Under the pieces are notes generated by a model that ran no database searches, was not told the origin of the DNA, and was given only the letters and a program-made list of their open reading frames with translations. This document shows, in pieces, positions 7,688 through 58,091 of a DNA stretch of 64,000 bases (positions are counted from its first letter, which is position 1; every line of letters starts with the position of its first letter). The DNA is taken from IMG/VR virus record IMGVR_UViG_3300045972_000219; one strand, written 5' to 3'. Source of the DNA: a virus. Its lineage: Duplodnaviria; Heunggongvirae; Uroviricota; Caudoviricetes. Made by a program: the position numbers and the translations under genes.

Positions 7688-8812
7688 ATGCCATATCTTA
7701 AAGGAGTAGATTTAGAAGCAAGGAATCATAGTTTCCTCAGCGAGGAGTTATTATGCCCTAACGTATCAAAGACTGACTTATCTCGTGCTAATATGTTCTG
7801 CAACCATGTGGTACAGACTGTAGTTCCAACGTATGGAGATACTCCGCAGGTGTTTACGGGATTTGAGAATCAGGTAGGAGACTATTCTCATTCGATGGTT
7901 AAATTCGATAAGAAAGTTAAATTGATTCATATCATTAAGAAAAACGAATGTAATGGAATGTATGTATTCCAAGAGGTAAAATCGAAGAAGATACATGTGG
8001 TTGAGAATAAGACTCATGGTAGAATTACAGAATACTATGGCTATCAATTGAATAACGATAAAATACATGGTATGACTGTAGGTGAAACCATTGATGAGGG
8101 AGAGATTGTAGTACATTCAACATCTCATGATGATATTGGCAATCTTAGGTATGGAGTTAATCTTAATACTATCTACTCAACTATAGATGGACTGAACTAC
8201 GAGGATGCTGTTGTAATTTCCGAGTCAGCTCAAAAGAAGATGGCTTATGAAAACGTAGAAGAAGTAGTTGTCACTATAAATAATAATGATATCTTAGTTA
8301 ATTATTATGGTGACAATCATAAATTTAAATCGTTTCCAGACATTGGAGAAGCTACTAGAGATGGTATATTATGTGCTAGAAGACGAGTGAATTATGAATC
8401 TGCATTTGTTGAGCTATCCAATAGATCACTTAAATCAATAAACTTTACTAACGATAATATCTTCTATAGTAAAGGTAAAGTTGTAGACATTCAAGTCTAT
8501 ACAAATATCGATGAGAGTATTCTAGAGTCACATGTGTATAATAATCAAATCCTTAGATACCATAAAGAAGAACAAGAATACCACAATAAAGTGGGTGAGA
8601 TTCTTGGTGGACTTATTAAAGGTAAGACATGTGATAAACACTTTACACCTGATGTATCTTACATCTATAGCCGTAGCAAGGCTATGATAGGTAAAAAGAA
8701 ATGGACTTATGAGAAGTCCGAGTTCGATGGAGTAGTTATTAAGTTTACAGTAGCATATACTGAGAATGTATCTATTGGAAGTAAGATATCTAATAGGTAT
8801 GGTGGAAAGGGT
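7688..8812 (+). CDS. rpoB: jumbo-phage multisubunit RNA polymerase beta C-terminal subunit, exon 1 of join(7688..8812,9806..10396,11379..11606), 647 aa spliced
   Basis: SRANMFCNHVVQ, GLNYEDAVVISES (GYNFEDS motif), IGSKISNRYGGKG (GDK..GRHGNKG motif); probably the non-virion enzyme (phiKZ gp71-73/AR9-type), by inference from size. Confidence 0.88.
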
Positions 8813-9805
8813 AAATTAAATGCCCCTTGTAGTAGTAATGCTACAATGTAATTCTTCTAATTGTCTGGAAACCCCTAACATGTAATGATGAGGGCAATCA
8901 GCAGCGAAGTTATCACTCATATAGCATCCGATAAAGGAGGTTATATGGAATATGAATGGTCTGGTTTGAATATACTCTTTTTAAAAGAAAATTATCTTAA
9001 AATGACTAATATCGAACTAGGTCAAAAAATAGGTCGTAGTGAATGTGCTGTAGAACACAAGTTAGCTAGACTTGGATTGCGACGTAGAGAATTCAGCCAA
9101 ATTGCTGAAACTGTGGATGGTGAAGTATGGAAAAAGATTAAAAGTATGGATTATGCAATTAGTAATCATGGTCGAGTTAAGAATACTGAATCTCAGTACT
9201 TAATGAAACCTAAACTAGACAAATATGGATATATGAAAGTTAAATTGATTGTAGCTCCAAATGATCAGAGAGACTTTCAAATTCATCGTCTAGTTGCTAT
9301 ACTTTTTATATCTAATCCAGATAATCTTCCAACAGTTAATCATATTGATGGAAACAAAACTAACAATATGAAAAATAATCTAGAGTGGAATACATATCAA
9401 GCTAATAAACTGCATGCATTTGATACAGGTATAACAATAAAACCGATAATTTCGAATAGAAGATTTATTCCACAATATTCGGATGATATTGTTCACCAGA
9501 TATGTGAATTACTTATGAAAAATAAGCCAGATAACAAGATATCTGAGATTGTTGGATGTCAATCTAAATATGTTCAGGATATCAGAAGGCGTAGAATTCG
9601 TAAAGACATATCAGATCTATATGAGTGGTAAAACGTTCAACGACTAGAGCGAAAGCTCGTACACTGCAAGCCAATGGTAGTGGAAATGGAGAACATCCTA
9701 ATCATTTTATGATGGATGAAGATATAGTCTAATCTCATATGAAAATATGAGCTGCATAGAGAGTATATGCGGGTTTAGTTTTGCGAACTAAACTGAATAC
9801 AAATG
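8813..9805 (+). mobile_element. group I intron 1 in the RNAP beta gene
   Basis: Exon ends GGT(U) and intron ends G; P/Q/R/S elements AATTGTCTGGAAA, AATCAGCAGCG, GTTCAACGACTAG, AAGATATAGTC; splicing gives RYGGKG|VISKILPDKDMP. Confidence 0.92.
8945..9631 (+). CDS. intron-encoded HNH homing endonuclease (N-terminal Myb-like HTH, NUMOD4, HNH_3; I-HmuI-like)
   Basis: YAISNHGRVKN, IHRLVAILFISNPDNLPTVNHIDGNKTNNMKNNLEW; AAAGGAGG RBS before ATG 8945. Confidence 0.9.
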   Translation: MEYEWSGLNILFLKENYLKMTNIELGQKIGRSECAVEHKLARLGLRRREFSQIAETVDGEVWKKIKSMDYAISNHGRVKNTESQYLMKPKLDKYGYMKVKLIVAPNDQRDFQIHRLVAILFISNPDNLPTVNHIDGNKTNNMKNNLEWNTYQANKLHAFDTGITIKPIISNRRFIPQYSDDIVHQICELLMKNKPDNKISEIVGCQSKYVQDIRRRRIRKDISDLYEW

Positions 9806-38367: not shown

Positions 38368-41300
38368 ATGTCAATCGTTAAAATTAAAAGATCGACTACA
38401 ACTTTAACACCTGCAACACTAGTTGATGGTGAATTAGCGTACTCTCATTTATCTGGTAATTTATTTATTGGTAACGGAGCTAGTGTTGTTAAAATTGGTG
38501 GTGCAACTTCAACTGCAAGAGTAGACGCTATAGCTGCAGTTATAGGTTTAGTAAAAAGTAATGGGTCTGGATCGTTTTCAGCTGCAGTTGCAGGAACGGA
38601 TTTTGAAGCTGCAGGTGCTGTAGCTGCACATAATTCTGCATATTCACACGTTAATATTCATACACATACTAATTTTACTGCATTAAATGCTGTATCAGGT
38701 ACTAATACTGGCGACCAAACTAATATCACTGGTAACGCAGGTACTGCAACTAAACTTCAAACTGCAAGAACTATTAATGGTGTTGCATTTGATGGTACTG
38801 CAAATATTACTATTACTGCAGGTGGTACTGGTCACACTCTTGATGACTCCGAATATAATTGGTTCTTTGGAAACCTTCCTGGACAATCTGCGCCAATACC
38901 ATATACTATCAATAGATATTTATCTGTTTCATCTACAGGACCGTACGGTACTAAAACTGTAGGCATACTAGATGCATTATTAACGGTTACAGGTAATATA
39001 GGTGGATGGGGTTCTCCAGTATGTTATATTAATGGAAATAGCTTTGATTGGAGTTTTGGAGATAGGTTAAAGATTTTAGTAACTGACGGTCAACCTATGT
39101 TAATAAAATCATCTATGCCATTACAAACTCCGGGAACTCCTATTATTGAGATAGCTAGTATGGCTGGTATTTCAACAGTAGGATCATATCATAATTCTGG
39201 TGATGGATCTTACTACTTAGCATTGTACTGTTATCAGAATGACTATATTGAAATTATTAGCACTGATACAGGCTTCGTTGTATGTGGGCAAAACTTTATT
39301 GAATACATGGGTGGAAAAATTAGTTGGGATAAGATTTCTAATCCGTATGGAACTCCTTACACCCAAAATCTTCCAACTAATGCAACCTTAGATCGTAGTT
39401 ACCTTGGTAGAACCATGAATATTACTGGTAATGGTACTACTATCAATCTTCCTTCAAGTGCATCATCATCTGATGGTGATACATACACGTTTGTAGATTT
39501 AGGTGCAATTAGCTGTACTATTGCTACTGATGCATCAATTGTCTATAATGGAAGATCAATGACAAGCATGACATTTGGTGGTAAAATAGGAATATGTGGT
39601 ATAACACTGTCATGGAATCCATCTGGCGCTTGGATGGTAAAATCACACTCTGTTAAAGAGAGTACTAGTACCATATATCCTATCCAAACTGATGGATATG
39701 TTAGATTAAAAAATGCTTCCTTTTTTACATTAGAAGTAACTTATTGGCCTATAACATTATTAATGTTAGATCCATCAGCTGAGTGTATGCAATCAATTAT
39801 GATTGAAATCACTAATGGCGGATTGCAAACTGTAACATGGCCTACAGGCACTAAGTGGGTTGGTGGAACTCCGCCAACACTGACTACTGCAGGACAAGAT
39901 GTTATCAGTATGTATACCCATGATGCTGGCGTTACTTGGAATGCATTTCTAGTGGGGACAGATAGCGGTATATTGGAAATTACTGGTGCTGCTAATACTG
40001 AAAAGGCACTCCGTATTGCTAATTATACTCAATCAGTTTCCAATGTAAATCAAAACTACATTAAATCTGAAAGTGGTAAATTAACTATTGGTACTCAGAT
40101 GAATGATAGTATTCATTTAGTCCCTAGTGGAACTGGTCGTATTTATTGTAAAAATGAAACATATATAACTGCAGGAGTACATATACAGAAAGCTAGTGCC
40201 ACTGAAGGTGGTCAGATAAACATTTATCGTGGCTCAGATGATACAGTAGACTGGATTATAGACGATCAGGGGTCACAGGCAAGTACAAGTTCAGCTAATC
40301 TACGTATCATCGATAGGCAATCTTTAGTTGCTCTACAGATTGAAGGAACGAATCGAAATGTGTGTGTAGGTAATGGTTCTACTGTAGATGCACGATTCTC
40401 TGTATGGGGAACAGTTACAGGCGCTGCTACAGCATATGGTTGTAACGTAGCTGTTAACGTTGATAATAATGTCGTTACATCAACTGCATTTCTTAATCAG
40501 GCTTCTTCAAGCGTAGTAGGTGCAGGTAGTCTTATTCAGCTTATCAATTACCATGCATCACAAGGAAATCATACTGGTACTGTACAAAATCAGTATGGCT
40601 TCTTGGCATCTGTTGGCTTAGTTGGCGCTACTAATATGAATGCCGGTTTCCACGGCGCTGTGGGTAATGGAAGTGCAGCTATTACATTTGTATCTCTTAC
40701 TTCCAATGTAGTTACGCTAGAAATGGCATCACATTCATTTCTTGTTGGAAATAGAGTTCAGGTTTCAATGGTAACAACTCCAAGTGTTAATGGTACATAT
40801 ACTGTAACAGCAAAAACAGCAACATCTATATCTTATGCTCTTACTGCTGCAAATATAGCAAGAATTGCAGAAAGTGGTGGAGTTGCTTATAATGAATCTA
40901 GGCGTAATATCAGTATGGGTGGTGCTGCTAACAATTATATGGCAGGAAATCTACTTATCGGCTATACAGAGAATAGAAATGCTCCTGGTACTGTAATCGG
41001 TGTTACTGACTATGGTCGCCAAAATTTACAGGTTAACGGAACTGGTTACTTTAGTAGTAATCTTTTTGCTGGATCATTAGTACTTACCCAAACCCCAACT
41101 GGTGTTATTGAGATGGGTAACAATGTTGGTGGTGCATCTTATATTGATATTAAGACTGATACTACATACACTGACTTTGGTTTAAGAATCATCCGTAATG
41201 CAGGTACAGCTAATGCAGTGAGTGAAATTATCGCAAGAGGTACTGGTGGTTTTGGTACTACATGTTCAGACGGTGGAGCTATATGGTGGAAGATTAATAC

Positions 41301-52107: not shown

Positions 52108-52120
52108 CTAGGGGATGCTT

Positions 52121-52705
52121 ATGCAAAATGTAGATTATTCAGGATGTATACTCAAAGCTTACCCAGCTGCAACTATTCGGGACTTTGAACTTGTAGATAT
52201 AGATGGAATTATATCTATATCTTATTGGAACTTAGATAAATTAGGAGCACAACCAAGCTTAGAAGATTTAGAGTTACATCAATGGCTTGGAGTGGTAAAA
52301 AAAGTAGCACTTAATGATATTAAAGAGGTTAGACAGTTAGGTCTTGATAGAGTGGCTAGAAGTTCCGGTATTCTATCTGTTTATCAGGCTAATTATGAGG
52401 CTTCAATTAATGTTATTAATGGTCAAGGTACAATTTTAACTAAGACAGGTATGACTAGTCATGACTACTGTTTAGGATTTGCAAAAAATCTAGGTATGAC
52501 AGTAGAGCAATTTGCACAGTATATAGTAAATGAGAATGTAAGAATGGGTCCAACTGCATATCAGATAGAAAGACGTTATTTAGCATTAACATATGGTGGT
52601 GATTCCGAACTTGGTATTACTCCAATTAATATGATAGATAGTGTGGATCATGTACAAACTGCAGCTAGTACTTATAGAAAATTCTGTCTAGGAGATGAAG
52701 CATGA
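52121..52705 (+). CDS. XkdW-like fibre-associated chaperone
   Basis: N-terminal ILKAYP....DFEL.D.DG..I..WN..L..QPS.E.L pattern; follows a fibre gene. Confidence 0.55.
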   Translation: MQNVDYSGCILKAYPAATIRDFELVDIDGIISISYWNLDKLGAQPSLEDLELHQWLGVVKKVALNDIKEVRQLGLDRVARSSGILSVYQANYEASINVINGQGTILTKTGMTSHDYCLGFAKNLGMTVEQFAQYIVNENVRMGPTAYQIERRYLALTYGGDSELGITPINMIDSVDHVQTAASTYRKFCLGDEA

Positions 52706-53225: not shown

Positions 53226-53257
53226 AGACGCTACACTCTTAATTGAGTGTAGCGTCT
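53226..53257. terminator. bidirectional hairpin between convergent genes
   Basis: AGACGCTACACTC-TTAATT-GAGTGTAGCGTCT with an upstream A-run. Confidence 0.75.
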
Positions 53258-53259
53258 GT

Positions 53260-53571
53260 TTAATCTAGAATGTACCCGATATTCTCACCAGTAAGTATGA
53301 AATGTGCAAAACAACGTGGGTTGCACCTCATACTCATCCTGAGAATTGTTTTCTCAGAATTTAGGAAATATTTTGTCTTATACGGTGGGTTCGTTAGATC
53401 TAGGTAGTGATTTCCTGTCAAACTTAGATGATTAATATAATCAGTCTTACTCAATATACATACATAACTAATGTCCTCAAATTCTCCTCTATCAATAATA
53501 TTTTGAACTACACTCTGGATTGCTTCGTTTTTAACATTCTTAATGTCTCGTTTATTATTTAGTATTTTCAT
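53260..53571 (-). CDS. hypothetical protein (probable early gene)
   Basis: GGAGG RBS, GATATTATATAAT motif at 53584-53596, own terminator. Confidence 0.65.
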   Translation of the reverse strand: MKILNNKRDIKNVKNEAIQSVVQNIIDRGEFEDISYVCILSKTDYINHLSLTGNHYLDLTNPPYKTKYFLNSEKTILRMSMRCNPRCFAHFILTGENIGYILD

Positions 53572-53603: not shown

Positions 53604-53633
53604 AACCCATACCTCAATTAAGAGGTATGGGTT
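53604..53633 (-). terminator. hairpin after the holin-like gene
   Basis: AACCCATACCTC-AATTAA-GAGGTATGGGTT. Confidence 0.7.
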
Positions 53634-53637
53634 ATTT

Positions 53638-53934
53638 TCATTTAATTATAGAATCAACAACAGTTGGATTTTTCAATGCCCATTTTACTATAGCAATTGC
53701 CCATCCAATAATAGGTGGTATGACTGTAGCAGCAACAATACCAATAGTTACAAACAAACCAAATTTAACTTTAAGTGTATTAGACTCTAGCTGCATTTTT
53801 ACTAATTTATCTTGAATACTTTGGAGCATTACACCATGCTCTCTCAGCTTTTCTAGTACAAATTTAGCAGATGAAGACCACTTATAATCTTCATTTACTT
53901 CGGGAATTTCCTCATCTTCATTACGTCTACTCAT
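53638..53934 (-). CDS. holin-like/XhlA-like small membrane protein
   Basis: WSSSAKFVLEKL, coiled coil, then one C-terminal TM (FGLFVTIGIVAATVIPPIIGWAIAIV). Confidence 0.5.
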   Translation of the reverse strand: MSRRNEDEEIPEVNEDYKWSSSAKFVLEKLREHGVMLQSIQDKLVKMQLESNTLKVKFGLFVTIGIVAATVIPPIIGWAIAIVKWALKNPTVVDSIIK

Positions 53935-55316
53935 TGGATAACATCCCCCTTGAATTGGCGTTGGAGGATTTCTGGTAGTCTTCCATCCATTGAATAATTT
54001 TTCATTAAATAATTCAATAATCTTTCTTCAGCAGGTACTAAGATATCCTTACAATTTTGACTCTCACATCTAAGTTTATTAGTATCACTCAATGCTTTAA
54101 GTACTGAACAAATTTCTTGTAAAAAATCTAAGTTAGAGTAACCAAAGGTAACTGTTCCCACAAAGTATTCATCATGATCAAGTAAGGGAGCCATAATGAC
54201 TCGGATAGAAGTGTAGTCATTATATAATATACCATCCTCTATAAAAATTGAAGGCTGAAGAGTTTCTATTATCTTACGTTTAGCAATAACGCAATTATTA
54301 CCAAATGAACCACATACACCTCTATCAGAGTTCATTTCAATAATTTCTTCCATAGTCATACCAATAGCTTTATGTCTATTGACTTTTAAGAAATTAGCAG
54401 CATATTGATTAAGAAGTGTGATTTTATCTTCAGCATCTCGTATGATAATAATATTAGGTATAGTATTTATAATTCTACTTAATAATGAACTAGTTTCTTT
54501 ATGATCATGATCAATATGCATTATTTCAATTTCTTTTTCAGTTAGAAGTTCTTGATATCTAGATAATTCTTCCTGAGTGTGAGATAGACCGTGGAATATT
54601 TCTTTTATTTCATCTATCTTATCATCAGGATTCTTAAAGAATTTAATATCTGCAACTTTAATAGTTATGTATATAAGAACTATAAATATTGCTATTATAA
54701 GTCCCATATAAATATACTGAAATTTAAATAATATTGAAAACTCTTTCATTGCATCGGCTTCAGAAATTGATTGAATCAGAACTACTTTATAACGTGTATT
54801 ATCAGTTGTATTGATATAATTTGAAACAGTAGATGGTATTACTTTCCATTCAACCCATCTTTTTCCATCATAACCCAACCAACTTAAATTCTGCTCTGAA
54901 TCATTACCAGACATTATAGAGTTGATAAGTAATTCATGATTAATATTGTATTCTTTTAATACACTAGATAACGATTTACCTTCATATTGAGGGGAGTTAT
55001 TGGAGTCATGTATAATTTTACCAGTTGTATCAAGTAACACAGCAAACATTATACTTGAATTACCCGAAGTTTTTTGTAAGGCAGTATGATTGAGAATTTT
55101 TGATAAATCACTATAACTAATTGTAGTGTCATTACCATGATACTCTTTTATTTCTTCTTGAATAATATTTGCTGCAGTGACTAAATTTATTTTAGCTTGG
55201 TTTCTAGCACTATATTCTACTGAAGTAGATAGTATTTGGTTGAATAGATTCTCAGTGAATAATATGACTACACATACGGATAAGTATGCCAGTATTTGAA
55301 ATATTCGATAATTCAT
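53931..55316 (-). CDS. membrane sensor: TM, Cache-like domain, TM, coiled coil, PAS; no output domain
   Basis: TM1 near the N-terminus, FAVLLDTTGKIIHDS, TM2 (YMGLIIAIFIVLIYITI), PAS (IINTIPNIIIIRDAEDKITLLNQYA...IG.T.EEI; APLLDHDEYFVGTVTF); only ~55 aa follow the PAS. Confidence 0.8.
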   Translation of the reverse strand: MNYRIFQILAYLSVCVVILFTENLFNQILSTSVEYSARNQAKINLVTAANIIQEEIKEYHGNDTTISYSDLSKILNHTALQKTSGNSSIMFAVLLDTTGKIIHDSNNSPQYEGKSLSSVLKEYNINHELLINSIMSGNDSEQNLSWLGYDGKRWVEWKVIPSTVSNYINTTDNTRYKVVLIQSISEADAMKEFSILFKFQYIYMGLIIAIFIVLIYITIKVADIKFFKNPDDKIDEIKEIFHGLSHTQEELSRYQELLTEKEIEIMHIDHDHKETSSLLSRIINTIPNIIIIRDAEDKITLLNQYAANFLKVNRHKAIGMTMEEIIEMNSDRGVCGSFGNNCVIAKRKIIETLQPSIFIEDGILYNDYTSIRVIMAPLLDHDEYFVGTVTFGYSNLDFLQEICSVLKALSDTNKLRCESQNCKDILVPAEERLLNYLMKNYSMDGRLPEILQRQFKGDVIQ

Positions 55317-55354
55317 GTTAAACCTCCTAATAAACTGTTACACTTATATATAAT

Positions 55355-55390
55355 AAAGAATCCACTACCATAGTTGGTAGTGGATTCTTT
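55355..55390 (-). terminator. 16-bp hairpin
   Basis: AAAGAATCCACTACCA-TAGT-TGGTAGTGGATTCTTT. Confidence 0.7.
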
Positions 55391-55391
55391 A

Positions 55392-55700
55392 TTATTGCGG
55401 TTTATGAATTATGTAATGACTTGCTTTTGATTCTAGTTTTTCCAAATCACTAATGTACTTATTCATACCCTTCATAGCTACAGCTCGCTGTTCTGGATCT
55501 TTGAAATATTCACTAGGACTTTCTTTAACTCTTTGAGCAGTACCTAACTCAAGCTTTATAGTAGTTACTAGTCTATTACGATCATTTTCATTTCTTACAT
55601 TTTCAAGTCTGTGATATAATGACTGAATATGATCGTTATATGATGTCATTTGTTTTACATGTTCTAGTTCACTTGTATGATTTTCAAATGCAGGTAGCAT
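55392..55700 (-). CDS. hypothetical helical protein
   Basis: 102 aa ORF. Confidence 0.5.
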   Translation of the reverse strand: MLPAFENHTSELEHVKQMTSYNDHIQSLYHRLENVRNENDRNRLVTTIKLELGTAQRVKESPSEYFKDPEQRAVAMKGMNKYISDLEKLESKASHYIIHKPQ

Positions 55701-55771
55701 AGATTTTACCCTACGTACAATAGCATCTGTTAAACTGTAATTATCATGACCAAGAGCATTTATTTCTTCAC

Positions 55772-56938
55772 TCAGGAGAGTTCCAATCTTTTTTTTTTCG
55801 CTTCCTCAACGAGGCCAGACATATATCTAATTTGATTTAAGGTCTTTTCCCTTATCTCGTCTCTCTGAGTTGCATCTGCTTTCTCAGAGTTATTAGTAGG
55901 TCTATCAACTTCAGTAACTTCCTGATGAACGGTACCCAATATATCAATGCATTTCTGTGCATCATTTACAAATACATCAGCTTCTGCAGCAGTACTGATT
56001 TTATTAAACTTATTATACCATACAACTTTTTGAACTTCTAAACCACCTTCAAGTGCCATACCTCCAACAACATCATGAAGTTCAGTAGTTGCAAATTCTT
56101 TTTTATAAAGATTATATTTACGCTTACCAAACATAGCTTCAACTAATACATTTTCAGTAATAGTTTTTCTAGTTGCATCAGGCTGAGATACGGATAATTT
56201 CTCATCAGTAGTACGTAATTTGTCAATAAATGTATGAAGATTAGACAATAGTTTAGGACGCTCACTGTTAGTAAAAGATGTTGCACTTCTAATAAGATTT
56301 TCAGCTTCAATCATCTTATCTCTTACTTCTTTTTGAAGTTCATCTTTTTCAGTATCAGTATTTACTTTAGATGCCCTTTGACTTAAAGAGACAGCTACTT
56401 TATCTAATGCATTGTCTTCTGCAGCTTGTTTAACAGATTTGATGACTTTACCAGTTAGTGAGTCTAGTGGAAGCTCTGGTTCATGTGGAGAACCCATTGA
56501 TACGGGAGGTTTAGCTACAGTATTATAATTAGCTACCGTCTGATTACTTACTGGCATATTGTAGTTGCGGACATACACGGTTGCTGCAGATACTGGTGTG
56601 AGTCCAGAGGACATATCTTCAGTCATAACGGACTCCTGATAGTTATTATCTAATGGTTGATAGTCAAAATGTATATTTTTAGCTTTTGAAAGAACTATAT
56701 TAAGCTCAGTTAAATGAGACTTTAGTGATGATACTTCACTAGATGTGAATTTAGGATTTGTTATATGCTTCTCAGTTGTCTGTATACTTGATTGTACCTC
56801 ATCTATAAGTCTCTGTTTTTTAGTAGGTGTGTTTGCAAGCATTATTTTATGATGAAATTCATCTAGCTCATCGATATCTCTACCGTTTAATGTTTTCTTT
56901 ATAGAACTGACGAATCCAGTTTCATTTAGTTTATTCAT
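55772..56938 (-). CDS. hypothetical helical protein (possible internal virion protein)
   Basis: GGGG RBS before ATG 56938; internal helical repeats (KQRLIDEVQS / DELQKEVRDK) with LxE sites. Confidence 0.55.
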   Translation of the reverse strand: MNKLNETGFVSSIKKTLNGRDIDELDEFHHKIMLANTPTKKQRLIDEVQSSIQTTEKHITNPKFTSSEVSSLKSHLTELNIVLSKAKNIHFDYQPLDNNYQESVMTEDMSSGLTPVSAATVYVRNYNMPVSNQTVANYNTVAKPPVSMGSPHEPELPLDSLTGKVIKSVKQAAEDNALDKVAVSLSQRASKVNTDTEKDELQKEVRDKMIEAENLIRSATSFTNSERPKLLSNLHTFIDKLRTTDEKLSVSQPDATRKTITENVLVEAMFGKRKYNLYKKEFATTELHDVVGGMALEGGLEVQKVVWYNKFNKISTAAEADVFVNDAQKCIDILGTVHQEVTEVDRPTNNSEKADATQRDEIREKTLNQIRYMSGLVEEAKKKRLELS

Positions 56939-56948
56939 ACTATCCCCT

Positions 56949-57374
56949 TCAGGATGCTTCTTCATTTACAATAGCACCCAATCTTTGTCTTCTAATTTTC
57001 TTTATGTTAGCTTCAATACCTAACTCTAAGATTTTAGAGTAGGTTATGTCGATTATTAATGTATCTAGCATTTCTTTCTTAACATACTTACCTAGTGTAT
57101 TAATATATCGTTCACTAAGAAGTCCAATTATTTCAGTGGCCATATCAACCACATATGAATTTATCATCTCATCATTAATTGGAATGGCTCTATCGTTATT
57201 CTCCAACTTAGGTTTTACAACAAGTTGAGAGAAGTCATTAACTTTCTTGTCAATGATCCACATAAGAAAGCCAGTATCATTATTCCAATCACACTTGACA
57301 TCTAGTGGAATTAATTCCTTTGATGATTTGTTCTTATTAAACCAGCTCATAATAATATCCTTTATATTATCCAT
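56949..57374 (-). CDS. hypothetical protein
   Basis: ORF in the minus-strand operon. Confidence 0.6.
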   Translation of the reverse strand: MDNIKDIIMSWFNKNKSSKELIPLDVKCDWNNDTGFLMWIIDKKVNDFSQLVVKPKLENNDRAIPINDEMINSYVVDMATEIIGLLSERYINTLGKYVKKEMLDTLIIDITYSKILELGIEANIKKIRRQRLGAIVNEEAS

Positions 57375-57375
57375 A

Positions 57376-57969
57376 TTAATCCACATCCTTTAAGAATATT
57401 GTCATATCTGAAAGAGACTTCTTAGCTAAATCAGGTTTAATCTTAATTTCACCATTGAGAAACTTTTCAAAGTCAATATGAAATCTAACTATAATTTTTC
57501 TAGTCTTATTACTAAATCTCATTCTACGGTTATTAGCTTTCCAAAACGCAGCAATACCATTTCCATTATATGCTTTAGATGCAGCCCACCAATCAGCTAA
57601 CATTTCTTCTATATCTTTTAATGGCATATCTAAAACTTCTATAGCGTGTCCAGCACCGTCTAACGTCCTATTCCTTGCAACACAATGGTACTGCCAATGA
57701 TGCGATGAAGAATGACAATGATGTTTCCATGCTTCTTTCATATTATCATCATCCAATGGTTCATAGAAACCTGATGAATCTCTACCTGCATTTATACCAT
57801 CTTTAGTTCCAAATTTTTTGACATATGCTCTAAATTCAATTGGATGGAGTTTACATATATCGTGAACTATACCTCTCCAATATAATCCACATTTAAAACA
57901 TGCAATAAGCACATAAAATTTATGTATAATTAATGATTTTAGATATTTTACAATTGGTTTTAACTCCAT
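57376..57969 (-). CDS. HD-superfamily phosphohydrolase (DUF5662-like)
   Basis: HKFYV...GIVHDICK.HP.EF, AWKHH...HHWQYH, EMLADWWAAS. Confidence 0.8.
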   Translation of the reverse strand: MELKPIVKYLKSLIIHKFYVLIACFKCGLYWRGIVHDICKLHPIEFRAYVKKFGTKDGINAGRDSSGFYEPLDDDNMKEAWKHHCHSSSHHWQYHCVARNRTLDGAGHAIEVLDMPLKDIEEMLADWWAASKAYNGNGIAAFWKANNRRMRFSNKTRKIIVRFHIDFEKFLNGEIKIKPDLAKKSLSDMTIFLKDVD

Positions 57970-58091
57970 ACTATTTTCTCCATCCATTATAAAGTTTATT
58001 AGAAAGTTTTAGTATATTCTCCGTTAATTCATAAAAAATATATGTATATTATTATAATAGAAATTAAATCTATTTGAATAAGGGGTGAATT

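Follow-up and report, generated by a model that had tools for sequence, protein, structure and literature searches.

The sequence analysed here, referred to as the window, is a stretch of 64,000 nucleotides from a virus of the Caudoviricetes (IMG/VR virus record IMGVR_UViG_3300045972_000219), and is a portion of a 171,491-bp contig with a G+C content of ~33%. Its source is a large phage, and the genes in the window include those for an NAD-dependent ligase and a ribonucleotide reductase, together with many tail-fibre genes. Just past the end of the tail-fibre block, on the minus strand and convergent with the block, lies the pair of genes considered here (53638-55316). The first, with a coding sequence of 53931..55316 including the stop codon, encodes a membrane sensor of 461 amino acids (aa) that lacks a kinase, and the second (53638..53934) encodes an orphan membrane protein of 98 aa. 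The start of the second gene overlaps the stop of the first in a 4-nt ATGA, as had been noticed in an earlier reading made from the letters alone (the sequence-only reading). The locus has no nucleotide or protein match among 50,697 phage records, and searches of the phage GenBank set, IMG/VR and the metagenome contig set gave no relatives. Among 1.84 billion protein representatives the sensor has only two true relatives, P0002 (50% identity) and P0003 (65%), with which it forms a three-member family; both are encoded on short metagenome contigs, and their N-termini are cut.

The sensor consists, in order, of a transmembrane (TM) segment, a single-Cache-like outer domain, a second TM segment, a long coiled coil, a PAS domain and a helical tail of 66 aa. 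Hydropathy places TM1 at residues ~3-22 (55251..55310) and TM2 at residues ~199-222 (54651..54722), both, like every feature of the pair given here, on the minus strand. The extracytoplasmic domain between them (residues ~25-195; 54732..55244) was assigned as single-Cache/PDC-like from an AlphaFold2 (AF2) model and Foldseek. It was modelled at moderate confidence, with a predicted local distance difference test score (pLDDT) of 60-83, as a PAS-like alpha/beta domain with a long N-terminal helix, into which the TM1 helix extends, and this arrangement between two TMs is consistent with the Cache/PDC type. The Foldseek matches are the ectodomains of TlpB (3ub6; E 8e-4, TMt 0.55), WalK (4ywz) and CitA (2j80). 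The outer domain matches none of the Pfam Cache models, and phmmer against the 1.84 billion representatives found no relative of it outside the three-member family. Inside the membrane follows a coiled-coil signalling helix (residues ~228-285; 54462..54635), which is one continuous helix in the AF2 model (model residues 6-61) and gives matches to GCN4-type coiled coils; it is not a HAMP domain. The model of the cytoplasmic part, built from a 26-sequence alignment, has a mean pLDDT of 83.9, and the sensor probably acts as a dimer. Hydropathy, Foldseek, AF2 and Pfam together bear out the output-less TM, sensor, TM, coiled coil and PAS layout that had been proposed from the sequence.

The PAS domain (residues ~286-395; 54132..54461) belongs to a subtype that we call FGExC after its pattern, PDxxWxKD ... 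GKT ... FGExC..SD ... KAP..D ... GTxGxGRD. It is a PAS domain because Pfam recognises it at threshold (22.3 bits in the full protein and 23.8 bits in the cytoplasmic part, against a gathering score of 22.6), because phmmer returned 86 matches of which all 84 outside the family align through it, because VIA gives Z 12-13 and rmsd 2.0-2.5 to many PAS structures, and because a hidden Markov model (HMM) of the subtype, built without the three-member family, matches it with E 7e-28. The region is modelled with pLDDT >90 by AF2. One cysteine, C342, is the last residue of an FG-x-x-C motif where the F-alpha helix begins, and is kept in 22 of the 26 sequences of the wider subtype, which suggests a pocket residue for a ligand, a cofactor or redox input. 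The extra cysteines listed in the sequence-only reading are where it placed them, but within the family C342, C417 and C422 alone are invariant, and C335 and C403 are not. The FGExC PAS is also widespread in cellular Desulfobacteraceae, Desulfobulbaceae, Bacteroidales, Veillonellaceae/Sporomusaceae and Campylobacterales (loci L002-L081).

What follows the PAS is a family-specific tail of three helices (residues 396-461; 53934..54131), with helices at 396-414, 420-444 and 447-455 in the AF2 model, a Cx4C motif (C417, C422) and a C-terminal end, MDGRLPEILQR, that is invariant in all three family members. The tail is as short as had been supposed in kind, though at 66 aa it is longer than the ~55 aa first given. 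The sensor gave no Pfam match to HisKA, HATPase, GGDEF or MCP, and its tail none of any kind even at E<=10; nor could homology be detected between this tail and those of further short PAS proteins. Two identities for it were tried and rejected. A degenerate LuxR/GerE helix-turn-helix (HTH), suggested by eye and by the VIA match to VqmA, had a probability of <1% in hhalign against GerE. A DHp domain that has lost its histidine gave an hhalign score of 11.3 against 13 H-box regions, inside the shuffled range of 6.8-15, and the tail position that looks like an H-box holds S, N or K.

A truncated kinase or cyclase was likewise rejected. P0002 and P0003 stop at the same site as the window protein, and among the 1.84 billion representatives there is no longer protein that shares more than the PAS, so that the check for an intact output domain in relatives, which the sequence-only reading had proposed, came out against truncation. 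Read-through of the sensor's TGA would add 13 residues before the next stop. Judged by these comparisons, the sensor is a genuine receptor without a kinase rather than a truncation, and its gene is evidently under selection, since relatives at 50-65% identity keep both the common end and the invariant motif. As there is no catalytic or DNA-binding output, we infer that the output must be protein contact.

The most likely partner for such contact, judging from gene layout, is the 98-aa protein. It has a charged helical N-terminal part of 57 aa, of which 10 are basic and 11 acidic, followed by a TM seen in hydropathy (residues 58-84; 53683-53763) and a C-terminal tail of 14 aa; its topology is likely N-in, C-out, with the N-terminal domain predicted to be cytoplasmic. 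Translation of the two genes appears coupled, because the ATGA overlap is accompanied by a G-rich Shine-Dalgarno sequence (GGGGG, 10 nt upstream of the 98-aa start) and by gene-like codon usage, which at 0.283 per codon lies within the 0.16-0.62 range of confident window genes and clearly above the other frames of the same stretch. The 98-aa protein has no match in a word-index search, in Pfam at E<=10, in PHROGs, in PADLOC or in phage tblastn at E<=5, and a comparison of its C-terminus with the proteins of the window gave no match that stands out. The label "XhlA/holin-like" given to it earlier therefore describes a shape and is not a family assignment, as every one of the family searches came back empty and the architecture alone agrees. 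In that shape it does resemble XhlA (PF10779) of Bacillus PBSX, which is also small, with a helical cytoplasmic N-terminal part and a single C-terminal TM. It differs in having no sequence match to XhlA, and in that the next gene is a soluble orphan of 103 aa followed by a terminator, rather than a holin and an endolysin.

The pair is likely expressed late, to judge from promoter motifs. At 55328..55339, 12 nt before the sensor start, lies an AACA-N6-TA motif, the experimentally defined late promoter consensus of phage AR9 (PMC5312081). The predicted transcription start, the A at 55328, is also the first base of the sensor's AGGAGG Shine-Dalgarno sequence (55328-55323). On the same strand, AACA-N6-TA occurs 17 times within the 60 nt before genes, where its genome-wide density would predict 2.3, and the genes it precedes include the tail-fibre genes at 38368, 41821 and 48787. 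The window also encodes an AR9-type polymerase subunit: the open reading frame (ORF) at 7688-8851 (plus strand) matches the beta-like subunit of the AR9 non-virion RNA polymerase (7s00_C) with 261 bits and E 1.7e-76, over the first 377 of its 665 residues only. It is the exactness of the motif, its enrichment before genes and the presence of this subunit that make late expression likely. Hairpins flank the pair. One with an 18-bp stem (55353..55392, minus strand; -26 kcal/mol, z -7.6, with 0 of 200 shuffles as stable) follows the upstream 102-aa gene and separates the pair from the upstream genes, and a terminator-like one with a 12-bp stem and a weak U tract (53604..53633, minus strand; -21.6 kcal/mol, z -6.1) follows the 98-aa gene. 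The late-type promoter and terminator of its own that the sequence-only reading had ascribed to the pair correspond to this promoter motif and this terminator-like hairpin.

Comparison with other phages gives a setting for such a protein. Many of the 86 PAS matches are small (230-340 aa) and have several TMs or a coiled coil, an FGExC PAS, a short tail and no output. In each of seven viral contigs, L001 and L082-L087, the gene that directly follows or overlaps the one for a LydA-type holin (PF16083; 32-42 bits, the gathering score being 28.4) encodes a membrane PAS protein without output. In L001 (109-2633) the start of the PAS protein gene, P0013, overlaps the stop of the holin gene (PF16083 42.5 bits; phrog_785), and a phage-lysozyme gene lies ~1 kb downstream of P0013 with three small ORFs between. 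In the remaining six, which span at least three lineages, genes for a holin, a PAS membrane protein and a SleB-type Hydrolase_2 endolysin are adjacent or overlapping (L082:950-2884; L083:4264-5937; L084:4335-6282; also L085-L087). In phage P1 the antiholin LydB follows LydA, and the same argument from position has been used to predict antiholins of Campylobacter phages (PMC7692668). On gene order, the cassette PAS proteins occupy the LydB antiholin position. Full-text searches of an open-access library turned up no description of a PAS-domain antiholin.

How the window sensor relates to these proteins can be stated for its PAS domain. This domain scores 86 bits (E 7e-28) against an HMM of small membrane PAS proteins and 65 bits against an HMM of the cellular clade; the former was built from 15 sequences (P0013-type together with L082-L084), for 4 of which the lysis-cassette context is confirmed. 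In pairwise comparison the window protein and the L001 protein share 29% identity over 129 aa (E 4e-15). The link between the window sensor and the lysis-cassette PAS proteins is one of subtype membership, as far as these sequences go, and not a demonstrated sister relation. Another arrangement was seen in L088 (3697-5574), L089 (4206-5991) and L090, in which a coiled-coil protein of 179-199 aa with a single TM is encoded by a gene overlapping that of a soluble triple-PAS protein (421-425 aa). This layout resembles the window pair and is a second kind of PAS protein with a small membrane partner in phages. The 98-aa protein gives a weak pairwise match to the L089 partner (E 2e-4, over coiled coil and TM), which was not counted as homology.

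The explanation that we favour, tentatively and at rather below an even chance, is that the pair forms a late-expressed, signal-gated membrane switch that works through protein contact and probably acts on the timing of lysis. The Cache domain would bind a ligand outside the cytoplasmic membrane, and TM2 and the coiled coil of ~55 residues would pass the signal to the cytoplasmic FGExC PAS, which may itself receive a ligand, cofactor or redox input via the conserved cysteine. The signal would end at the helical tail with its MDGRLPEILQR motif and leave the sensor by protein contact, most likely with the coupled 98-aa membrane protein, which has a cytoplasmic helical domain and a C-terminal anchor. 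In this way the sensor would behave like an antiholin or lysis regulator, either of the 98-aa protein or of a holin encoded elsewhere. That the role is signal-dependent control of a late membrane event, namely the timing of holin-type permeabilisation, is a somewhat more doubtful step.

Several findings weigh against a role in lysis. The 64-kb window holds no LydA-type holin, a Pfam census of its other 30 ORFs found no lysis family, and the 98-aa protein, whose gene the sensor gene overlaps, is not recognisable as a holin and matches no holin, XhlA or antiholin family; an Atlas feature search placed it near XhlA, DUF1515 and DUF2951 clusters at 0.87-0.88 (XhlA 0.88), which is under the level that counts. 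The order of the genes, sensor and then small protein, is the reverse of holin and then PAS. The N-terminal part and the tail of the sensor differ from those of the lysis-cassette PAS proteins, and a maximum-likelihood PAS tree puts the family on a very long branch within a polytomy. The FGExC PAS is, moreover, common in cells, as a fusion partner of kinases, of receiver domains and of LuxR-type HTH domains. Lysis genes are, however, often scattered in large phages, as reported for Fletchervirus (PMC7692668), and a window in which no lysis genes were found therefore weakens a lysis role without ending it. The idea of lysis timing in the sequence-only reading accordingly gains indirect, comparative support from PAS proteins of the same subtype that follow LydA-type holins in seven contigs, and loses some from a partner outside all holin families and from a window in which neither holin nor endolysin was detected.

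In P1, LydA and LydB are a small membrane protein and its regulator in overlapping genes, and the FGExC PAS proteins stand at the LydB position in the seven contigs. The window pair differs in that its small partner is not LydA-type and has one TM, the order is reversed, there is no adjacent endolysin, and the sensor has an added Cache domain; the likeness to LydB is one of gene position, and the sensor has no PHROGs family. With RI and the holin T of phage T4 the likeness is of concept only, in that a phage membrane protein which senses in the periplasm passes external signals on to the lysis clock. RI is a small protein that works by means of its periplasmic domains, whereas the only soluble domain of the window partner is predicted to be cytoplasmic, and contact would therefore be made in the cytoplasm or the membrane.

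Other roles can be envisaged for the same architecture. The sensor could be a dominant-negative decoy, as was also suggested at the outset, which imitates the input portion of a host kinase of the WalK, ZraS or CitA sensor type and, by forming dead heterodimers or acting as a sink for ligand or accessory protein, silences an envelope or stress response late in infection. WalK/VicK, CitA/DcuS and ZraS do have a TM, a single-Cache/PDC domain, a TM, a helical linker and a cytoplasmic PAS in the same order and topology, the best whole-length structural matches of the sensor are sensor kinases (the WalK model 9a5d and VicK 4i5s), its Atlas structural neighbours are HisKA/HATPase kinases of Thermodesulfobacteriota, and VicK is its only sequence match in the PDB (weak, E 0.033); the lack of an output domain would suit a decoy as well. 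The resemblance to WalK/VicK is generic, however, and the sensor departs from the kinases in having no HAMP, no DHp phospho-accepting histidine and no ATPase domain, with the 66-aa helical tail, free of any DHp signal, in their place. Identity to any cellular PAS is ~20-30% and the Cache has no detectable cellular relative, so heterodimers with a specific host kinase are unlikely. A decoy would also leave the dedicated, translationally coupled membrane partner unexplained, and we consider it improbable. Of similarly low probability is a membrane-tethered regulator, in which the PAS and tail would hold a soluble phage or host factor and release it on a change in Cache or PAS input, much as membrane anti-sigma factors and tethered one-component systems do. 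The extreme C-terminal motif, the most conserved segment of the family, does suggest a docking site, and the FGExC PAS is fused to LuxR-type HTH domains in cellular proteins. The top VIA match is VqmA (6kju_B, Z 12.9), tied with PAS-only matches, a receptor with PAS and DNA-binding domains that is also found in phages. The VqmA of phage VP882, which triggers phage lysis, is like the window sensor a phage-borne PAS receptor without enzymatic output, but VqmA is soluble with a LuxR-type HTH, whereas the sensor is membrane-bound and has no HTH; neither an HTH nor any other known binding domain was detected in the tail, and the coupled partner is itself a membrane protein.

The pair faces the tail-fibre block from just beyond its end, with a terminator common to both, and this would fit a function in the envelope or in superinfection that is linked to the fibre genes, by which the pair senses or blocks the phage receptor or an incoming phage and so excludes it or protects progeny from re-adsorption. 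We would not rate this any higher than the two roles just discussed: the pair lies on the strand opposite to the fibre genes with a promoter of its own, there is no similarity to known exclusion proteins, and its clear promoter motif is of the late type, whereas exclusion factors are usually made early. Lastly, a family of three members without an output domain might be the functionless, decaying remnant of a captured host sensor gene. This is very improbable indeed, as three lineages at 50-65% identity have kept the full frame, the common end and the invariant 11-residue terminal motif, and the gene has gene-like codon usage, a dedicated promoter motif, a Shine-Dalgarno sequence and a coupled downstream gene.

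If a signal-gated switch on lysis timing is nevertheless what the pair encodes, its interest lies in how lytic phages read their environment, of which, to our knowledge, little is known beyond lysis inhibition of the T4 type and a few hijacks of quorum sensing. Here a phage receptor with a true extracytoplasmic ligand-binding domain and no enzyme part would be wired to a small membrane protein, and if it is true that the pair controls lysis, the dependence of lysis time on a ligand becomes a directly testable question. The arrangement of holin, PAS protein and endolysin is conserved in several phage lineages and may reach further than the window pair. More broadly still, the membrane PAS proteins might be an undescribed class of ligand-gated antiholin or lysis regulator that couples chemical cues from outside and redox or energy cues from inside to holin-type proteins, spanning the LydA-holin cassettes of many uncultured phages and the present AR9-like jumbo phage; we put this forward as a conjecture that is, at present, rather unlikely.

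Several features around the pair deserve mention. Downstream of the 98-aa gene lies the gene of the soluble 103-aa orphan (53260..53571, minus strand), which may be co-transcribed with the pair by read-through and whose membership of the module is uncertain. Beyond it a strong bidirectional terminator (53226..53257; -23.1 kcal/mol, z -9.4, followed by a T11 run) closes both the minus-strand block and the convergent tail-fibre block. The 103-aa gene has its own copy of an AT-rich element, ATATTATATAA, which occurs at 558 (minus strand), 4315 (plus) and 53595 (minus), in each case just upstream of a gene, with variants at 55354 (minus) and 11658 (plus), and which is distinct from the AACA-N6-TR late motif. 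A near-variant of it, ATTATATATAAG, is located at 55343..55354 (minus strand), upstream of the sensor. The early consensus of AR9 is an extended AT-rich element as well (PMC5312081). From this likeness, ATATTATATAA and ATTATATATAAG may be candidate early promoter elements for the virion polymerase, and ATTATATATAAG may be a second promoter of the pair. AR9 genes with both types of promoter are expressed throughout infection.

The domain RNA_pol_Rpb2_6, recognised in connection with the AR9-type polymerase, also occurs on a second window ORF, and NUMOD4/HNH homing-endonuclease ORFs are among the same 30 window ORFs; the gene of the non-virion polymerase subunit may therefore be split or interrupted. 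The gene at 52115-52705 (plus strand), which comes after that of a repeat-rich fibre protein of 1106 aa, encodes an XkdW domain (28.2 bits; gathering score 24.6). The xkdW gene of Bacillus PBSX has the fibre genes on one side and the lysis cassette on the other. Two charged helical orphans of 397 and 102 aa (55392-56965, minus strand), neither of which has a family match, immediately precede the sensor, with the hairpin between. Four genes upstream of the sensor and on the same strand is a DUF5662 protein (57376-57987; 114 bits). In L084-L087 the holin, PAS and endolysin cassette is preceded, at a distance of ~0.8 kb, by the gene of a homologue (31-33% identity, E ~1e-19; L084:3004-3531), and this co-occurrence may be a coincidence or a remnant of shared synteny.

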